From the NCBI RefSeq assembly GCF_000026545.1, contig NC_011601.1: a stretch of DNA of 64,000 nucleotides; one strand, given 5' to 3'. Shown here in pieces: positions 384 to 6,637 of this stretch (its first letter is position 1; the number at the start of each line of letters is the position of its first letter). The translations under genes and the position numbers were made by a program. Under the pieces are notes generated by a model. It saw only the letters and a program-made list of their open reading frames with translations, searched no databases and was not told the DNA's origin. Source of the stretch: Escherichia coli O127:H6 str. E2348/69 (GTDB taxonomy: Bacteria; Pseudomonadota; Gammaproteobacteria; Enterobacterales; Enterobacteriaceae).

Positions 384-2003
384 TTATTTGCTTACTTCTA
401 CCCGCATTTCATTTACCTGTGCAGGAGTAATCTTGTGGCCTTTCTTAAAATAATCGATTACGACATTGGACATGTTATTTCCGGCGCGGACCTGGACATT
501 TTTCCCTTCTTTGAATGCCAGAAAACCATCGCCCCCAAGTGCAAGGAAAGTCGTAGTCGCAACATGGTAAATATTCGTATCAACGATCTCTTCACCATTA
601 ATTTTAAAAGATACAATGCGCTGACCTACTGGTTTCTGCAGGGTATAGCGCATTTCTGCGCCTTTTGACATTTGCAGGATGCCATTGGTAAGCGATGCCC
701 CGTGCTCCAGTAGGTTACGCAGATCCTTACCGCTGAGATCCATTTCAGTAAGTTCATTCTTGAAGGGGAATGTACTGGTAATGTCACCAAAGGTAATCGT
801 GCCTGCATTTATATCAGCACGTAAACTGCCGGAGTTTATCAACGCAATTTGTGCAGTCGGTGCAGCGACAAGCATTGCATCGGTAAACAGGTTGCCAAGT
901 TGCGATGACTCACCGTAGGCACGAGTTAATGCAATCGATGATTCACCGACTGGTTGGCGTACAATATCCGCCAGTTTTTTATTCCAGCCATTGATAACTT
1001 TTTGTGTGGTTGGATCGGGTATCCATTCATCGGCATAAACCGTTTTCAGCTCAAAGCTCTTCACTTTATGAGTACGAGCTGTAGGGTTGACATCAAGGAT
1101 TAATTTACCAATATCGATACCGCCACTGTCAGTCGAAAGGATTAAGGTGTTGCCGACTTTGATTGGTTCTGGCGTTCCGACGTGGGCATGCCCGGTAATC
1201 AGAATATCCAATCCTTTCACCTTGCTTGCGGTTTGAATATCTTTATCCAGCGCACGTCTAACATCTGTATTGCCAATGCTGGACTGACGCGCCGGTACGC
1301 CTTCATGAACCAGCGCCACGGTGAGGTCAACCTTATCACGTAACTCGTCGATATAATGCTGCAAATACTTCACTTCATCACGTGCTTCAATCCCCTGATT
1401 CTTGAGGGTCGCGGAAGATTTATCAAATCGGTTATTATTGTCATTATCGAGTCCCTGGAGAGAGAGCTCCGAGACCGTGTCATTAAATGCAAATACGCCG
1501 TGTAGCCCAACAATACCAATCTTGATGCCATCTTTTTCCAGGATGGTGTAGGGCTTGTTCCAGAAGGGTTTCTCACTCTCTTTATGATAAACATTGCCTA
1601 ATAAAACAGGGAAATTCGCTTTGCTTAATTGTCGGAGGGCATTATCCCAGCCATGGTCAAACTCATGATTACCGATTGATACTGCGTCAAAAGGCATGGT
1701 ATTCATAATATCAATTATTGCTTCGCCCTTTGTCAGGCTACTGATATATGGCCCGGTGAAATAGTCTCCAGCATCAAAATAAAAGGTGGCTTTATTTTTG
1801 GCTTTCTCTTGTTTTACTAACGTGGATATATTGGCAAAGCCACCAATGTCGCGTTTTCCGTCTGCGACATACGGTACTTTATAGGAATCCACATGAGCGT
1901 GAAGATCATTGGTATAAATAATCGTGACATCCTGCGCCATGACTGAGGTCGAAAAAATAGTCAGCAATGTTGCGGCAAGTAAAGTACGCTGCGCTGTTTT
2001 CAT
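384..2003 (-). CDS. periplasmic 5'-nucleotidase / metallophosphoesterase, UshA-CpdB family (paralog 1)
   Basis: ORF 384..2009; signal peptide (MKTAQRTLLAATLLTIFSTSVMA); calcineurin-like metallophosphatase motifs NDLHAH, DAGD, GNHEFD, GHAH. Start set at second ATG (2003) for better RBS spacing. Immediately upstream of and co-oriented with the Tsx-like gene. Confidence 0.8.
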   Translation of the reverse strand: MKTAQRTLLAATLLTIFSTSVMAQDVTIIYTNDLHAHVDSYKVPYVADGKRDIGGFANISTLVKQEKAKNKATFYFDAGDYFTGPYISSLTKGEAIIDIMNTMPFDAVSIGNHEFDHGWDNALRQLSKANFPVLLGNVYHKESEKPFWNKPYTILEKDGIKIGIVGLHGVFAFNDTVSELSLQGLDNDNNNRFDKSSATLKNQGIEARDEVKYLQHYIDELRDKVDLTVALVHEGVPARQSSIGNTDVRRALDKDIQTASKVKGLDILITGHAHVGTPEPIKVGNTLILSTDSGGIDIGKLILDVNPTARTHKVKSFELKTVYADEWIPDPTTQKVINGWNKKLADIVRQPVGESSIALTRAYGESSQLGNLFTDAMLVAAPTAQIALINSGSLRADINAGTITFGDITSTFPFKNELTEMDLSGKDLRNLLEHGASLTNGILQMSKGAEMRYTLQKPVGQRIVSFKINGEEIVDTNIYHVATTTFLALGGDGFLAFKEGKNVQVRAGNNMSNVVIDYFKKGHKITPAQVNEMRVEVSK

Positions 2004-2043
2004 TCGCATTCCTTGTTAAATAAATTGACTGATAAATGAGATT

Positions 2044-3597
2044 TTATTTGGCGACGTCCATGACTCGTTTAGTTAAGTCTGGGGTGACAGGTTTATGATT
2101 TTTGAAATAATCGATGATAGATTCCGCCGAGGTTGTTCCCGGTATCGTCTTCACATTTTTTCCATTCAAAAATGCTTCAAAACCGTCACCACCACTGGCA
2201 CAAAAGGAGTGCGTGGCAATACGATATGTTTGATTATCTTCCACGGGTTTGCCGTTAATGGTGAAAGAGATTAACCGTTGGTTGAGTGGTTTTTTGCTGT
2301 CATAGACAACCGCAACGCTTTTTGAAACCTGTAACACACCGTTAGTTAGATTGGTTGCATGCGTCATCAATGATTTGAGATCGCGGCCCGTCAAATCCAT
2401 CTCGATGAGGTCATTATTAAAGGGGAATGTGCTAATAACATCTCCCAGTGTGATATCGCCTTTAGGAAAATCAGCTCGCATCCCACCGCTATTTTGAAAT
2501 CCGGCAACGGCATCAGGTGTTTTTTCCATCATTGCATCAAGAATAAGGTTGCCGGTAGAAGAGGAACTACCATACTCACGTGTTAAAACTATGGGAGAAT
2601 GGCCGACAACTTCCTGTGTTATTTTGTTAAGCTGTGCACTCCATTTATCAATAGTATTTTGAACGATGGTGTCAGGTTTAAATTGATCTGCAAAGATGGT
2701 GATTAACTCACCATTATAACTATCAATTTTCTTCGTTTTCGGATTGTAATCAAGCACAAGTTTTCCGATGTTGGTGCCGTATGCATCGGTAGATACAATT
2801 AATGTGTTATTAACTTTTATTGGTTGCGGTGTTCCGACATGTGCGTGACCGGTAATTAAGACATCAACACCATTCACTTTTTTAGCTGTCTCAATATCTG
2901 CCTGTAGTAGCCGCTCCACATCTTTACTACCAAAGCTTGATTGACGCGCCGGGACACCTTCGTGAATTAGCAAAACGGTAATGTCGACTTTACCTTTTAA
3001 TTCTGCAAGTGCTTTATTTAAAAATTTAATTTCGTCTCTGGCTTCTACGCCTTCACGTGCTTTTGCCGCGACAGTATCATAGAAAGCGAATGCGCCATGC
3101 AATCCAATCACACCAATCTTTAAACCATCTTTTTCGATAATGGTCCACGGATGATCCCAAACTGGTTTATTCGTATCGGTGTAGTAGATATTTCCCAGCA
3201 GAATGGGGAATTTTGCTTTTGATAACTGAGACACCATATTGGGCACACCGTGATCGAACTCGTGATTACCAACAGACACCGCATCAAAGGGCATAGTGTT
3301 CATGATATCAATAATAGCTTCACCTTTGGTCAGTGTGCTGATATACGGCCCGGTAAAATAGTCGCCTGCATCAAAGAAAAACACATCTTTGCTTTTTTTC
3401 TTCGCTTCATTAACGATGCCTGCAATATTAGCCATACCACCTATAAGTCTGTTCTTATCAACAGCGATGATTTTTGCCGGATTGACATGTGCGTGAATGT
3501 CATTCGTATAATAAATAGTAACGTCCTGAGCTAGAACACTGTGAGAAAATATCACGCCGAATATGACTGATAATGTTGTAAATACAGTTTTCATCAT
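2044..3597 (-). CDS. periplasmic 5'-nucleotidase / metallophosphoesterase, UshA-CpdB family (paralog 2)
   Basis: 517-aa ORF with signal peptide and the same metallophosphatase motifs (NDIHAH, DAGD, GNHEFD, GHAH); more divergent than paralogs 1 and 3. AGGAGG-like RBS just upstream. Confidence 0.8.
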   Translation of the reverse strand: MMKTVFTTLSVIFGVIFSHSVLAQDVTIYYTNDIHAHVNPAKIIAVDKNRLIGGMANIAGIVNEAKKKSKDVFFFDAGDYFTGPYISTLTKGEAIIDIMNTMPFDAVSVGNHEFDHGVPNMVSQLSKAKFPILLGNIYYTDTNKPVWDHPWTIIEKDGLKIGVIGLHGAFAFYDTVAAKAREGVEARDEIKFLNKALAELKGKVDITVLLIHEGVPARQSSFGSKDVERLLQADIETAKKVNGVDVLITGHAHVGTPQPIKVNNTLIVSTDAYGTNIGKLVLDYNPKTKKIDSYNGELITIFADQFKPDTIVQNTIDKWSAQLNKITQEVVGHSPIVLTREYGSSSSTGNLILDAMMEKTPDAVAGFQNSGGMRADFPKGDITLGDVISTFPFNNDLIEMDLTGRDLKSLMTHATNLTNGVLQVSKSVAVVYDSKKPLNQRLISFTINGKPVEDNQTYRIATHSFCASGGDGFEAFLNGKNVKTIPGTTSAESIIDYFKNHKPVTPDLTKRVMDVAK

Positions 3598-3826
3598 CCC
3601 TCCTAGATAGGGGGTGTTACATTTGTTGAATTATTTAAATAAAAGACACATCGTGTCTTATTTTATGTAAGCATAGTTCAGAAAAGTATTGTGTGATCTT
3701 AGTAACAAATAATGTTATTAATTAAACATTGACCATGATTATATTTCACGGTCATACATTTATATATTTAATTAAATGAAAGGTAGTGATCTCTCTTAAT
3801 TTATGGTCGTTTGTCGAGTGTATTGA

Positions 3827-4951
3827 CTAACAAGATGGAGTGAGCGATTCATTGTATTTTAACGCCAGTGAGGTCAGCATTTGCGTTACGCGACCTGCGG
3901 ATAATAACGCGCTTTGGGTAAAGTCGTGTTGGTCTGTCAGCCATGTGATAAAACAACGACTGGTTGCCAGAGAAACATTTGCGCCCCTTTCTAAGCAGGC
4001 TCCCGTGAGTAGGCAGACCATCTTGCAGTTATTCCCCTGCTCCCAGCGCTGCCACTGATTTTGCCACCAACCATGGTATGTCGTTCCCTTAAAATGCCAG
4101 GGCGTATCAGCGTTACTGTCACTGATTTCTTCTTCTACGAACCAAAGTTCACCTTGTTGTTGGCGGAACTGATCTGCCCAGGCTGTAATAATTGCGCCTC
4201 TTAGAAAACATTCGTGTGAAATAATATGCGTTTTGACATCTGGATAGCGGATTTTCAGTATTCTGAAATGCCCGTGTGCCTTGATAACCGGGCGTAGTAT
4301 GGCTCCCTTACCGTTGCGCTTGAGTACAGCACTGCCATACTGAATTTCATCGAACTGGCTCCGGCGCAAGAATTGCGCTTCACGCATATCTACCTTCTGC
4401 ACGATATCGCGATGGTGCATAGTTGGTTCTGTGTTGCCCTTGTAACTGTACCGCAGACTGTCTCCTGTCTGATGTTGCGTATAATTCGTGGAGAGATGAA
4501 GAATGTTGCCACGAGTGGCGTCAAGACTGACTAAAACATACAGTTTTTGTACTGCGCTGGCCCCTTGAAAGGGTATGAACAGTTGAACGGTTTCAATGGC
4601 CTGGGGATGCGTAATTTCTTTCTGATATTTTTTAGGCGTCCAGACTTTTTTGCAGTTACGGCATTGAATGCGTTGCGAACCCTGTGGATTGTGACCATAA
4701 CAAATCATGTCTGTGCCATAACATACCGGGCAGAAATGGCCTTTCTCAATTGCATAAGTAGACAAGTGAACTGACAACCAGTCACGAAATTGTTGCTCGT
4801 CAAACAACGGCGGGTAACTGCCACATGCCCGACAGTGCAGTGCCGGATAACCCAGTTTATAGTCTGGCCAACTGTAATCTTCCGATGAGGCCAATCCCAA
4901 ATTTCGGCAACCGAACGTTTTACAGGCATTAATCGTAAACAGAGTCGACAT
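3827..4951 (-). CDS. hypothetical Cys-rich protein, predicted cytoplasmic, possible zinc-ribbon protein
   Basis: 374-aa ORF with no signal peptide. N-terminal half contains several CxxC pairs (CRACGS, CPVCYG, CRNCKK); C-terminal half is Trp/Gln-rich. I cannot assign a family from sequence alone. Confidence 0.55.
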   Translation of the reverse strand: MSTLFTINACKTFGCRNLGLASSEDYSWPDYKLGYPALHCRACGSYPPLFDEQQFRDWLSVHLSTYAIEKGHFCPVCYGTDMICYGHNPQGSQRIQCRNCKKVWTPKKYQKEITHPQAIETVQLFIPFQGASAVQKLYVLVSLDATRGNILHLSTNYTQHQTGDSLRYSYKGNTEPTMHHRDIVQKVDMREAQFLRRSQFDEIQYGSAVLKRNGKGAILRPVIKAHGHFRILKIRYPDVKTHIISHECFLRGAIITAWADQFRQQQGELWFVEEEISDSNADTPWHFKGTTYHGWWQNQWQRWEQGNNCKMVCLLTGACLERGANVSLATSRCFITWLTDQHDFTQSALLSAGRVTQMLTSLALKYNESLTPSC

Positions 4952-5083
4952 ATATCACCAACGATTTCACAAGGTCGTTGATTTTGTCCGGCAACTATCC
5001 CCTGCGGATGTGATTACTCTCACATAAATAAGTCTTTCAGAACGTAATGTAGCAATCCTTTATCTCACTGAAAGGGATTGTTT

Positions 5084-6637
5084 ATGAAAATTAAAATACT
5101 TGCTGCGGGTATCGCATTAACACTGCCGTTCTGGGCTTGCGCTAAAGATGTCACTATTATTTATACCAACGACCTCCATGCGCATGTAGAACCTTATAAA
5201 GTGCCGTGGATCGCTGACGGTAAACGGGATATTGGCGGCTGGGCAAATATCACTACGCTGGTTAAGCAAGAAAAAGCAAAAAATAAAGCGACATGGTTTT
5301 TTGATGCGGGCGACTATTTTACCGGGCCATATATCAGCAGCCTGACCAAAGGTAAGGCTATTATCGATATTATGAATACTATGCCGTTTGATGCCGTCAC
5401 AATAGGCAACCATGAATTTGACCACGGCTGGGACAACACATTATTACAGTTGAGCCAGGCAAAATTCCCTATTGTGCAGGGCAATATTTTTTATCAGAAC
5501 AGCAGTAAATCATTCTGGGATAAGCCCTATACCATCATCGAAAAAGACGGCGTGAAAATTGGCGTTATAGGTTTGCACGGAGTATTTGCCTTCAATGATA
5601 CGGTATCTGCTGCCACGCGCGTGGGTATTGAAGCGCGCGATGAAATTAAATGGCTACAACGTTATATCGATGAACTCAAAGGCAAGGTTGATTTGACCGT
5701 CGCCCTGATCCACGAAGGTGTTCCAGCCCGCCAGTCCAGTATGGGAGGCACAGATGTGCGTCGCGCGTTGGATAAAGATATTCAGACGGCAAGTCAGGTG
5801 AAAGGGCTGGATATTTTGATCACCGGACATGCACATGTGGGTACGCCGGAACCGATTAAAGTCGGCAATACGCTCATCCTCTCCACTGACAGCGGCGGGA
5901 TTGATGTGGGCAAACTGGTTCTCGACTACAAAGAGAAGCCGCATAATTTTACGGTGAAAAACTTCGAGCTTAAAACCATTTACGCTGACGAGTGGAAGCC
6001 CGATCTGCAAACGAAACAGGTGATCGACGGCTGGAATAAAAAGCTTGATGAAGTGGTGCAACAAACGGTGGCGCAATCGCCGGTTGAATTAAAACGTGCC
6101 TATGGTGAATCGGCTTCCCTCGGGAACCTGGCGGCTGACGCCTTACTGGCAGCAGCGGGTAAAAATACCCAACTGGCTTTAACAAACTCTGGTGGTATCC
6201 GCAATGAGATCCCCGCAGGGGCGATCACGATGGGCGGCGTCATCAGTACCTTCCCGTTCCCCAACGAACTGGTGACGATGGAACTCACGGGTAAACAATT
6301 ACGCAGTCTGATGGAACACGGCGCAAGTTTAAGCAATGGCGTTTTACAGGTATCGAAAGGCCTGGAAATGAAGTACGACAGCAGCAAGCCGGTTGGTCAG
6401 CGGGTAATCACACTGACTCTGAATGGCAAACCCATTGAAGATGCGACGGTTTATCACATTGCTACTCAGAGTTTCCTTGCTGATGGTGGAGATGGTTTTA
6501 CCGCCTTTACCGAAGGGAAAGCGCGTAACACAACGGGCGGTTATTACGTTTATCACGCGGTGGTTGATTACTTCAAAGCGGGCAACACCATTACGGATGA
6601 ACAGCTCAACGGTATGCGCGTGAAGGATATCAAATAA
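5084..6637 (+). CDS. periplasmic 5'-nucleotidase / metallophosphoesterase, UshA-CpdB family (paralog 3)
   Basis: ORF 5078..6637 begins with TTG; the ATG at 5084 with upstream AAGGGA is the likely start ([20 protein letters not shown] signal peptide). Closest paralog of the 384..2003 gene. Confidence 0.8.

Follow-up and report, generated by a model that had tools for sequence, protein, structure and literature searches.

The 374-aa protein WP_000105533.1 of Escherichia coli E2348/69, referred to here together with its family as FAM, most likely represents a novel type of transcription regulator, since its gene is linked to nucleotide and nucleoside scavenging genes and has its own DNA box at constant spacing to a CRP site. 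We consider it fairly probable that FAM is a domesticated descendant of an IS1-type transposase, which now acts as a cytoplasmic DNA-binding regulator of nucleotide/nucleoside scavenging. The features identified within the window, i.e., the whole analyzed stretch of 64,000 nucleotides, are listed in Table 1.

Table 1. Features of the FAM locus, with positions counted from the first nucleotide of the window.
Feature	Position	Strand	Basis
FAM CDS, 374 aa, WP_000105533.1	3827..4951 (including stop codon)	minus	ORF list, RefSeq annotation, conserved N-terminus, dN/dS
Zinc ribbon 1, residues 8-48 (C10, C15, C40, C43)	4808..4930	minus	Cys conservation, AF2 model
Zinc ribbon 2, residues 72-105 (C74, C77, C97, C100), InsA/IS1-type zinc-binding domain	4637..4738	minus	NCBIfam, Pfam, hhalign
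RNase H-like (DDE transposase/integrase-like) domain, residues ~116-372	3836..4606	minus	
Terminator-like hairpin, 73 nt beyond the FAM stop codon	3730..3754	minus	Consensus scan only
CAAC box ACCAACGATTTCACAAGGTCGTTGATTTTG, predicted FAM operator	4957..4986	plus	Footprint, spacing, specificity
Consensus CRP site TGTGATTACTCTCACA, 10/10 core positions, center 5016.5	5009..5024	.	Sequence; conserved in all aligned loci
Core-promoter block CTTTCAGAACGTAA with candidate -10 TAATGT (5045-5050) of nucleotidase 3	5034..5050	plus	Conservation; promoter assignment inferred
Nucleotidase 3, periplasmic bifunctional metallophosphatase/5′-nucleotidase; predicted regulated target	5084..6637	plus	RefSeq
Nucleotidases 1 and 2; context genes	384..3597	minus	ORF list, RefSeq

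The FAM open reading frame is a real gene. Its start codon is an ATG, and the residues M1, N8, C10 and K11 at the N-terminus are conserved in the family alignment. In E. coli E2348/69 the RefSeq label of the product is 'hypothetical protein', and the island carrying the gene is located between metL and metF. A tsx-like channel gene was found further downstream of nucleotidases 1 and 2, just beyond the start of the window. A paper from 2026 lists the island and passes over the FAM reading frame (PMC12928451), and no published description of the protein was found in the literature on the accession numbers, the island and transposase-derived bacterial regulators. An earlier reading of the same DNA, made from the sequence alone, had placed FAM divergent from nucleotidase 3, which agrees with the RefSeq start of the latter at 5084, and had described AT-rich regions on both sides of the gene. 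The latter holds for the 3′ side (GC content of 0.32-0.33 at 3451-3900), whereas the 5′ intergenic region is moderately AT-rich, with a GC content of approximately 0.42-0.43.

The sequence-only reading had also called the protein an orphan, which turned out to be wrong: 248 matches were obtained in the word index, and the relatives fall into 124 representative clusters. Homologues number in the hundreds and occur in Enterobacterales, Vibrionales and relatives. The gene was found in 1,841 of 5,426 complete E. coli genomes, in a single copy and at one place per genome, and at least 80% of the gene is covered in 1,838 of these 1,841 copies. The carriers include EPEC, UPEC-type B2 strains and Nissle 1917. 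Apart from a few non-mobilizable plasmids, the search for plasmid or phage carriage yielded, among the plasmid records, only chromosomal or chromid-sized ones that had been mislabelled. A role as a defense system was rejected, as the PADLOC anti-phage models gave no match for FAM or three of its relatives.

For the analysis of selection, 11 enterobacterial orthologues were used, all of them intact reading frames of 374-391 aa. Five pairs had a measurable dS; for these, the dN/dS ratio ranged between 0.10 and 0.16 in four pairs and was 0.32 in the closest pair. FAM is under purifying selection. These data bear on the possibility that FAM is a decaying IS remnant or a functionless pseudogene, as might be suspected from its weak matches to IS1-family models and from the automatic annotation of some relatives as 'IS1 family transposase'. 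Such a reading is already contradicted by the intact orthologous reading frames with their dN/dS values of 0.10-0.32, by the near-complete coverage of the E. coli copies, by a synteny that is conserved over deep divergence and by a very confident fold prediction, and we give it almost no credence.

The genomic neighborhood of the family was analyzed at 69 loci from Enterobacterales, Vibrionales and relatives. In 64 of these, a gene for a periplasmic 5′-nucleotidase, nupC, a nucleoside phosphorylase gene or tsx was found within a few kb of the family gene, usually adjacent to it. This linkage survives rearrangement, since the family gene may be divergent from or downstream of the 5′-nucleotidase gene, divergent from nupC or downstream of the phosphorylase gene. 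The synteny is kept across genera. An ortholog of nucleotidase 3 (87-99% identical) is the divergent neighbor in almost all enterobacterial loci; at one Klebsiella sp. locus this position is occupied by a nucleotidase-2-like gene instead.

The amino acid sequence of FAM indicates two four-Cys zinc ribbons with predicted metal binding. Three CxxC pairs had been noticed before and are present (C40/C43, C74/C77 and C97/C100), and a fourth pair could be added, C10/C15 (CKTFGC). All eight ribbon cysteines are conserved or invariant, being found in at least 79% to 100% of the 53 aligned sequences. Those of ribbon 1 occur in 49-50 of the 53 family sequences, the remainder being gaps, and in the AF2 model this ribbon consists of paired short strands. 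It is specific to the FAM family as an extra N-terminal ribbon, as IS1 InsA does not contain it. The Trp/Gln-rich stretch noted in the C-terminal half corresponds to HGWWQNQWQRWEQ at residues 293-305, in which W295, W296 and W300 are near-invariant in the 53-member alignment. Further conserved residues of the C-terminal domain are T121, R197, R220-P221, H228, H246-E247 and N367.

No helix-turn-helix (HTH) had been recognized in the protein, and in the AF2 model, likewise, ribbon 2 is followed by the first strand of the C-terminal domain without an intervening helix; only 17 residues separate C100 from this strand. In the hhalign alignment of FAM with InsA, a gap extends across InsA residues 40-87, the HTH region. 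Long or distant relatives have kept the InsA-type HTH, with three helices at residues 114-169 of P0141. As judged from the alignments and the structural model, this HTH has been lost from FAM of E. coli and the enterobacteria. In IS1, InsA acts as a sequence-specific repressor that contains a zinc finger and an HTH; it binds the inverted repeats of the element, for which it requires the HTH (PMC12428005). The loss of this HTH from enterobacterial FAM speaks against the regulator reading.

The profile searches, structure prediction and Foldseek comparison suggested earlier revealed an InsA-type ribbon and an RNase H-like, transposase-like fold. The very confident AF2 model matches the RNase H-like topology beta1-beta2-beta3-alpha1-beta4-alpha2-beta5-alpha, with structural similarity to solved members. 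Among these, the ISCth4 transposase (IS256/Mutator family) and the TnsB and retroviral integrase cores share 8-14% identity with FAM, and their canonical DDE residues do not appear to be conserved in it. A structure search of AFDB returned family members only, and Foldseek against the PDB gave no match below an E-value of 1e-3 and none better than 3e-3. The sequence and profile search of the PDB yielded compositional C2H2 zinc-finger matches and none for the C-terminal domain. With Pfam, the InsA ribbon was the sole domain found on the family alignment.

The relation to IS1 is most evident in the N-terminal region. FAM matched the NCBIfam models NF050000 (E 7e-5) and NF033558 (E 9e-5), both below the cut-off; for the latter model the score was 22.5 bits for FAM and 30.3 bits for the best of ten relatives, compared to a curated cut-off of 100 bits. 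The Pfam model PF03811 gave an E-value of 7e-3 for FAM and of at most 1e-3 in 7 of 53 members. The alignment of the family with IS1 InsAB′ using hhalign reached a probability of 96.4% (E 1e-9) over InsA residues 4-87. The CPxC...QRxxCxxCxKxW zinc ribbon is homologous to that of InsA/InsAB′, as is the following HTH in the long members of the family, and in IS1 as in FAM an RNase H-like domain comes after the zinc ribbon. The C-terminal domain of FAM, however, has roughly twice the length of InsB and cannot be aligned with it by sequence. Because the hhalign comparison of this domain with InsB was not significant (Prob 0.3%), the IS1 ancestry of the core is argued from the N-terminal homology and the fold only.

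FAM differs from IS1 also in its single-copy, syntenic occurrence and in having no terminal repeats. No convincing pair of terminal inverted repeats was found around 3400-5300, the best pair being located inside the nucleotidase-3 coding region, and no IS1-end pattern occurs within the window. This confirms the earlier statement that no such repeats flank the gene. The suggestion of a degenerate transposase is supported with respect to the origin, as the InsA-type ribbon and the RNase H-like fold point to a transposase-derived protein, but not with respect to a decaying IS, given the single copy, the synteny, the purifying selection and the missing IS ends.

The canonical DDE positions are probably not intact. 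In a mapping by secondary-structure order, D1 corresponds to T121 and D2 to R220-P221; together with the conservation pattern this suggests that the two aspartates of the ancestral site are gone. Acidic residues are conserved at E247 (100%), D201 (87%) and D144 (75%) in the 53-member alignment. The transposase-like fold and an inverted repeat beside the gene, with a core in common with the IS1 ends, could be taken to mean that FAM is an active recombinase which acts on the CAAC palindrome, e.g., by inverting or nicking the promoter for phase variation of the nucleotidase. We regard this as very improbable, since each locus contains a single repeat element without a second end, the promoter has the same orientation in 23 of 23 aligned enterobacterial loci, the gene occupies one place per E. 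coli genome and the positions of D1 and D2 are, according to the inferred mapping, not acidic.

An enzymatic role deserves more weight, although it is unlikely as well. Here, a remodelled RNase H-like site (R197, H228, H246, E247, D201) would cut or process nucleic acid or oligonucleotides in the cytoplasm and feed salvage, with the ribbons holding the substrate and the DNA box belonging to another regulator. The invariant His, Glu and Arg residues and the functional link to nucleotide catabolism are in line with this, and the RNase H-like fold is common to the nucleases EndoV, PIWI, NurA and UvrC. However, the canonical acidic positions are not conserved according to the secondary-structure mapping, the homologue of the N-terminal module is a repressor that binds DNA sequence-specifically, and a locus-specific box that is found only beside the FAM gene would be left unexplained.

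This box, the CAAC box, consists of (A/T)(C/T)CAACGA half-sites arranged as an inverted repeat. It lies between the start codon of FAM and the CRP site and overlaps the FAM leader and promoter. Across 23 enterobacterial loci its arms are conserved and its center is variable, and it is the only perfect instance within the window. The possibility that the inverted repeat forms a hairpin in the leader RNA of FAM was rejected because substitutions in the arms (G to A in L012, L019 and L037) are not compensated. The CRP site is common to the promoters of FAM and nucleotidase 3, which are divergent, and, judged from the E. coli CRP consensus, would be functional; CRP would sit near -41.5 of the nucleotidase-3 promoter. 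The putative core-promoter block of the latter is near-invariant, with one substitution each in 4 of 23 loci, and is unique in the window. Transcription is predicted to start near 4975 on the minus strand and near 5057 on the plus strand.

The distance between the box and the CRP site was found to be fixed at 58.5/59.5 bp. In 55 of the 69 loci a YCAAC lies exactly 58.5 bp from the center of the CRP site, with the latter between box and target gene, and this spacing was identified in 12 of 14 lineage representatives. The 55 YCAAC-46 nt-CRP composites, many of which are related by descent and which represent approximately six to seven independent lineages, compare with 1.3 expected by chance in the 69 loci. 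They occur once per locus, all at the predicted FAM-linked promoter, and none is present at the other nupC, tsx and phosphorylase genes within the 2 Mb of flanking sequence. The remaining 14 of the 69 loci, including the paralogous subfamily (L065, L070) as well as L009, L042 and L067, yielded no composite under the rule applied.

Elsewhere in the window the box half-site and the core-promoter block occur at chance level, which speaks against a local regulon that extends past nucleotidase 3. Nucleotidases 1 and 2 have their own CRP-like site (TGTTA-N6-TCACA, 3692-3707), and no CAAC box was present at the expected offset from it in the nucleotidase-2 promoter; control of the whole cluster by FAM is therefore not supported. 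The sequence-only reading had considered a regulator or sensor for the cluster. The regulator part is strengthened, though not proven, by the gene linkage and the locus-specific element of box and CRP site, while the extension to the whole cluster does not stand, as the box is found at the nucleotidase-3 promoter only.

CytR or another host factor could bind the box because its half-site (A-Y-CAAC, CAAC...GTTG) resembles TGCAAC/GTTGCA (PMC3454398). The box might then be an operator of such a factor, and FAM would act otherwise, e.g., by modulating the linked genes through the binding of RNA or protein. In line with this, CytR binds well to CAAC-N10-13-GTTG repeats (PMC3454398), it is a partner of CRP at nucleoside promoters, and the enterobacterial FAM has no HTH. 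The geometry differs, however: CytR operators lie at most 5 bp from a CRP site and in most cases are flanked by two such sites, which are separated by about 52 bp (PMC3454398), whereas the CAAC box begins at least 22 bp from a single CRP core, the end of the box in the window being 22 bp away from it, and no second CRP site was found distal to the box, where the FAM start codon is located. Furthermore, the base before CAAC is C or T and never the G of CytR sites, and a host factor would leave open why the other nupC, tsx and phosphorylase genes of the same flanks do not carry the composite. Taken together, a foreign operator is also rather improbable.

According to the preferred reading of FAM as a transposase-derived regulator, the protein would bind the CAAC box, as suggested by the co-occurrence of gene and box; in enterobacteria, a dimer would probably occupy the inverted repeat. 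Together with cAMP-CRP it would control the divergent nucleotidase-3 gene, for which both activation and anti-activation are allowed. FAM may in addition repress its own gene, since the box overlaps the FAM leader; this would parallel the repression of the IS1 promoter by InsA. The remodelled active-site region (T121, R220-P221, H228, H246-E247) and the Trp-rich sheet could serve dimerization or the sensing of a nucleoside- or nucleotide-derived signal. Both IS1 ends contain CCAACTTAYTGAT, and the CCAAC core common to the IS1 ends and the CAAC box may be a relic of terminal-repeat recognition. A more far-reaching version, which we put forward tentatively, holds that a whole family of transcription factors arose from a domesticated IS1-like DDE transposase, with a CCAAC operator derived from the terminal inverted repeat and a catalytic pocket reused for sensing. 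These factors would act only in a CRP complex of fixed geometry (58.5 bp) and form a hitherto unrecognized gammaproteobacterial circuit for the scavenging of extracellular nucleotides and nucleosides, parallel to CytR and DeoR.

If confirmed, FAM would constitute a third specific control system for nucleoside/nucleotide scavenging beside CytR and DeoR. It would provide an explanation for a 'hypothetical/cytoplasmic protein' in one third of the E. coli genomes and correct the annotations as 'IS1 family transposase' in Vibrio genomes. It would also be a model for how a terminal-repeat-binding module is rewired into a CRP-dependent promoter architecture, even after the loss of the HTH.

Among the known systems, the CytR/CRP promoters (deo, udp, cdd, tsx, nupC and nupG) have the physiological theme in common with the FAM loci. 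They are also similar in architecture, as the site of a specific factor with the half-site CAAC/GTTG is placed at fixed geometry beside a CRP site (PMC3454398). In contrast, CytR is a LacI-family protein and FAM is transposase-derived, the FAM box lies at least 22 bp from a single CRP site, and the composite occurs only beside FAM genes.

Host regulators that arose from domesticated transposases are well known from eukaryotes; in bacteria they are documented for TnpB, from which the TldR repressors are derived. In the literature searched, no case is described of a DDE-type IS transposase acting as a dedicated bacterial host regulator with its own operator. Plant FHY3/FAR1 derive from Mutator-like elements (PMC6000157). 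FAM resembles FHY3/FAR1 and TldR in that a DNA-recognizing protein of a transposon has lost its mobility and catalysis and was recruited as a host regulator. It differs from them in its ancestor, a bacterial DDE-type IS1-like transposase, and in acting without a guide RNA.

The window is chromosomal DNA of enteropathogenic E. coli E2348/69, which it matches with 100% identity. Its island between metL and metF holds a tsx-like nucleoside channel, three periplasmic metallophosphatase/5′-nucleotidases that are paralogs of one another (nucleotidases 1 to 3), and the family protein studied here, termed FAM. In a 2026 comparative paper this island was named GR31, and the channel and the three nucleotidases were discussed while the FAM ORF was skipped (PMC12928451). 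In the literature searched, no description of the FAM family or of a host regulator derived from a DDE insertion sequence in bacteria was found.

Coordinates of FAM, its intergenic region and further features of the window
Feature	Coordinates	Strand	Remark
FAM ORF	3827-4951	-	374 aa, WP_000105533.1, annotated 'hypothetical protein'
Inverted repeat (predicted YCAAC box)	4957-4986		ACCAACGATTTCACAAGGTCGTTGATTTTG; arms conserved, centre variable; adjoins FAM start
Candidate FAM -10, CAAAAT	4981-4986	-	would put CRP near -41.5
Perfect CRP site, TGTGA-N6-TCACA	5009-5024		footprint
Core-promoter block	5034-5047		footprint, nearly invariant
Candidate nucleotidase 3 -10, TAATGT	5045-5050	+	would put CRP near -41.5
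Nucleotidase 3 start	5084		divergent from FAM, RefSeq
Hairpin and T-run, AAGACACGATGTGTCTT TTATTT	3643-3659	-	~45 nt ahead of nucleotidase-2 start
CRP-like site, TGTTA-N6-TCACA	3692-3707		nucleotidase-2 promoter region, no CAAC box
IS1397 (IS3-family)	12258-15000		between yijF and gldA, split by IS110-family element
IS110-family transposase ORF	13603-14679		NF033542, 198 bits

The sequence-only reading had described an orphan protein with three CxxC pairs and a Trp/Gln-rich stretch, transcribed divergently from nucleotidase 3 between AT-rich flanks. The three pairs are present, with an additional fourth pair (C10/C15), as is the Trp/Gln-rich stretch, and the RefSeq start of nucleotidase 3 bears out the divergence. 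The 3′ flank is AT-rich, whereas the 5′ intergenic region is only moderately so. The description as an orphan was refuted, since 248 relatives were found by a word-indexed search (best label 'cytoplasmic protein') and matches in 124 clusters when 1.84 billion representatives were searched exhaustively with HMMER. Relatives with 58-88% identity occur in Escherichia, Citrobacter, Klebsiella, Enterobacter, Kluyvera, Pluralibacter and others, and the HMMER clusters include full-length proteins of 400-520 aa with 19-35% identity.

Residue conservation was judged across 53 diverse family members. Two zinc ribbons are conserved (C10, C15, C40, C43 and C74, C77, C97, C100), the second of which is of the IS1 InsA type. 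This ribbon is matched by NCBIfam NF050000 and NF033558 at E ~1e-4, far under the curated cut-offs, and 7 of the 53 members match Pfam PF03811 significantly. Aligned to IS1 InsAB′, the family profile covers InsA residues 4-87 at a probability of 96.4%; the IS1 DNA that underlies this InsAB′ sequence was checked against plasmid R100. The alignment spans the zinc finger and the HTH, and E. coli FAM is gapped across the entire HTH. In its AF2 model (pLDDT 94, pTM 0.93) ribbon 2 is joined to the next domain by only 17 residues without a helix, whereas in a 478-aa relative, modelled at pLDDT 92, three helices occupy the HTH position; the HTH has thus been deleted in the enterobacterial clade.

Residues ~116-372 adopt an RNase H-like fold. 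For this domain, Foldseek returned only weak matches in the PDB, mostly of the same superfamily, and only family members in AFDB, some auto-named 'IS1 family transposase'; a sequence comparison with InsB was not significant. In AFDB50, members from Vibrio and Photobacterium carry this name and two are called 'Lactate dehydrogenase', names that are probably misleading for a family that is single-copy and syntenic. By secondary-structure order, the first and second catalytic Asp positions would correspond to T121 and R220-P221. Among the 53 members R197 and H228 are invariant and E247 is acidic in 100%, and T121, P221, H246, W295, W296, W300 and N367 are conserved as well. The remodelled RNase H-like pocket may have an enzymatic role.

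The FAM gene is present in 1,841 of 5,426 complete E. coli genomes, with one copy in every carrier, and 1,838 of these copies span 80% or more of its length. The gene is essentially absent from mobilisable plasmids and from phages, no terminal inverted repeats were found around the gene, and no PADLOC model matched FAM. In the five orthologue pairs whose dS was measurable, dN/dS was 0.10-0.32 (nucleotidase 3 in the same comparison: 0.02-0.05); FAM is therefore a functional gene, and a pseudogene was ruled out. That FAM is transposase-derived, immobile and under selection is solid.

A minimal island, metL-FAM-nucleotidase 3-metF, occurs in many non-B2-type strains with a FAM allele that is ~77% identical. 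Between B2-type and common E. coli alleles (window 3827-6637 against loci L012/L013), synonymous divergence is ~1.1-1.3 for FAM and only 0.24-0.34 for the adjacent nucleotidase 3, a difference that points to a mosaic island with a recombination breakpoint within or close to their shared intergenic region. Citrobacter sp. wls619, the sole two-copy genome in the species scan, has two family genes (L026 and L037, with 64% and 69% identity to the query), one at a minimal locus and the other next to a complete cluster of nucleotidase 1, tsx, nucleotidase 2 and nucleotidase 3. The hairpin ahead of nucleotidase 2 could be a leader attenuator or else a second terminator for FAM. Elsewhere in the window, the LT827011 'variety 2' copy of E2348/69 is without the additional 1,374 bp at IS1397.

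In 69 collected FAM loci, nucleotidase, tsx, nupC and phosphorylase genes were marked by tblastn or precomputed Pfam matches. In the Enterobacteriaceae, FAM and a nucleotidase are always transcribed divergently across a gap of ~127-140 bp, with the pair at metL-metF or, in Klebsiella and Enterobacter, elsewhere; the neighbour is a nucleotidase-3 ortholog (87-99% identical) except at one Klebsiella sp. locus with a nucleotidase-2-like gene in its place. In the Vibrionaceae and one Psychromonas the gene lies directly 3′ of a 5′-nucleotidase on the same strand. In Aliagarivorans, Gynuella, Psychromonas and a metagenomic lineage it diverges from nupC, and a nucleoside phosphorylase gene is close by, and in the Aliagarivorans and Psychromonas loci of this type tsx is also near. 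Member P0203 is encoded 3′ of a phosphorylase, and P0156 between a phosphorylase-phosphopentomutase-nupC operon and tsx with adenosine deaminase. The functional tie of FAM to nucleotide and nucleoside scavenging is likewise solid, and FAM is very probably a domesticated IS1-like protein with this tie. Signal peptides are present on the linked enzymes and absent from FAM, so a direct protein partnership is unlikely.

In some E. coli a second family member, a paralog with 25% identity, is encoded on an island between dnaJ/mokC and nhaA. Like P0160, it lies 3′ of a sulfatase/phosphodiesterase-like gene; subfamily neighbours include a tsx-family channel (Pfam) and a 5′-nucleotidase in L065 and, likewise 5′ of the paralog, a 253-aa hypothetical protein in L070 (E. 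coli RHB23-SO-C02, 3597-7245). A conserved ORF of ~56 aa accompanies the nucleoside phosphorylase gene (L066 5026-5196, L067 5624-5794). It apparently encodes a membrane peptide, is assigned to no Pfam family by the precomputed data and, from raw sequence, may also lie upstream of the family gene in nupC-type L039, L047 and L049.

Comparison across genera shows a strong footprint in the FAM/nucleotidase-3 intergenic region. Substitutions in the arms of the inverted repeat are uncompensated, so it is a DNA site, and an RNA hairpin was ruled out. The otherwise unalignable upstream regions of Vibrio nucleotidases keep the order of a conserved ACCAAC(A/T)CA....G.AACT block, CRP site and -10. Counted from the first A of ACCAAC, the CRP centre lies 59.5 bp away, equal to 58.5 bp for YCAAC. 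This spacing was found in 16 of 20 Vibrio-type loci, in the window and all enterobacterial loci examined, in the HTH-bearing P0123 clade and three nupC-type lineages, and in 12 of 14 lineage representatives, YCAAC at other offsets being almost nil. Several Vibrionaceae promoters upstream of the Vibrio-type nucleotidase have a PurR-box-like element between box and CRP site, as a perfect palindrome (GCAAACGTTTGC; L008, L058, L063) or a near match (TAAACGTTTGC or GCAAACGATTGC; L051, L056, L059, L061); loci without it exist, and the box-to-CRP spacing is constant throughout.

A scan of the 69 loci, 2.09 Mb with both strands included, for YCAAC-46 nt-CRP core (at least 8 of 10 positions) gave 55 matches, whereas shuffles gave 1.3. 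Each positive locus has exactly one match, and all are at the predicted place: 40 in the divergent gap and directed at the target gene, 14 upstream of the nucleotidase preceding FAM and one upstream of a phosphorylase-FAM operon. No composite was found at other nucleoside genes in the same flanks. It is also absent from the paralog subfamily (L065, L070), which thus probably uses a different operator. That FAM loci carry a private box-plus-CRP element is solid. CytR could bind the box, which resembles its half-site TGCAAC and CAAC-N10-13-GTTG repeats (PMC3454398). However, CytR sits within 5 bp of CRP, usually between two sites, whereas the box is at least 22 bp from a single CRP site, its CAAC is preceded by a pyrimidine, and the composite occurs beside FAM genes only.

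If FAM itself binds the box, it would act with CRP on the target promoter and, in the enterobacteria, also on its own, because the box overlaps the FAM leader. CCAACTTAYTGAT is found in both ends of IS1, so a CCAAC core is common to these ends and the box; as a likeness of five bases this is suggestive only. A box-binding, CRP-dependent transcription regulator is slightly favoured, its main weaknesses being the E. coli form without the HTH and the likeness of the box to the CytR half-site. Both halves of the initial proposal, a regulator or a degenerate transposase, are right in part: FAM is transposase-derived but immobile and selected, and regulation is predicted from the private element.

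The homologous module, InsA, acts as a repressor and recognises the inverted repeats of IS1 via its zinc finger and HTH (PMC12428005). Like InsA and CytR, FAM is predicted to be a specific DNA-binding partner, here at a CRP-dependent promoter. FAM does not belong among the IS1-family insertion sequences, from which it differs in HTH, terminal repeats, copy number and score against the family cut-off, and probably, as far as the positions can be mapped, in the DDE triad. FAM adds to the known phenomenon of transposase domestication, an example of which in bacteria is the TnpB-derived TldR. In plants, FHY3/FAR1 is such an example (PMC6000157).
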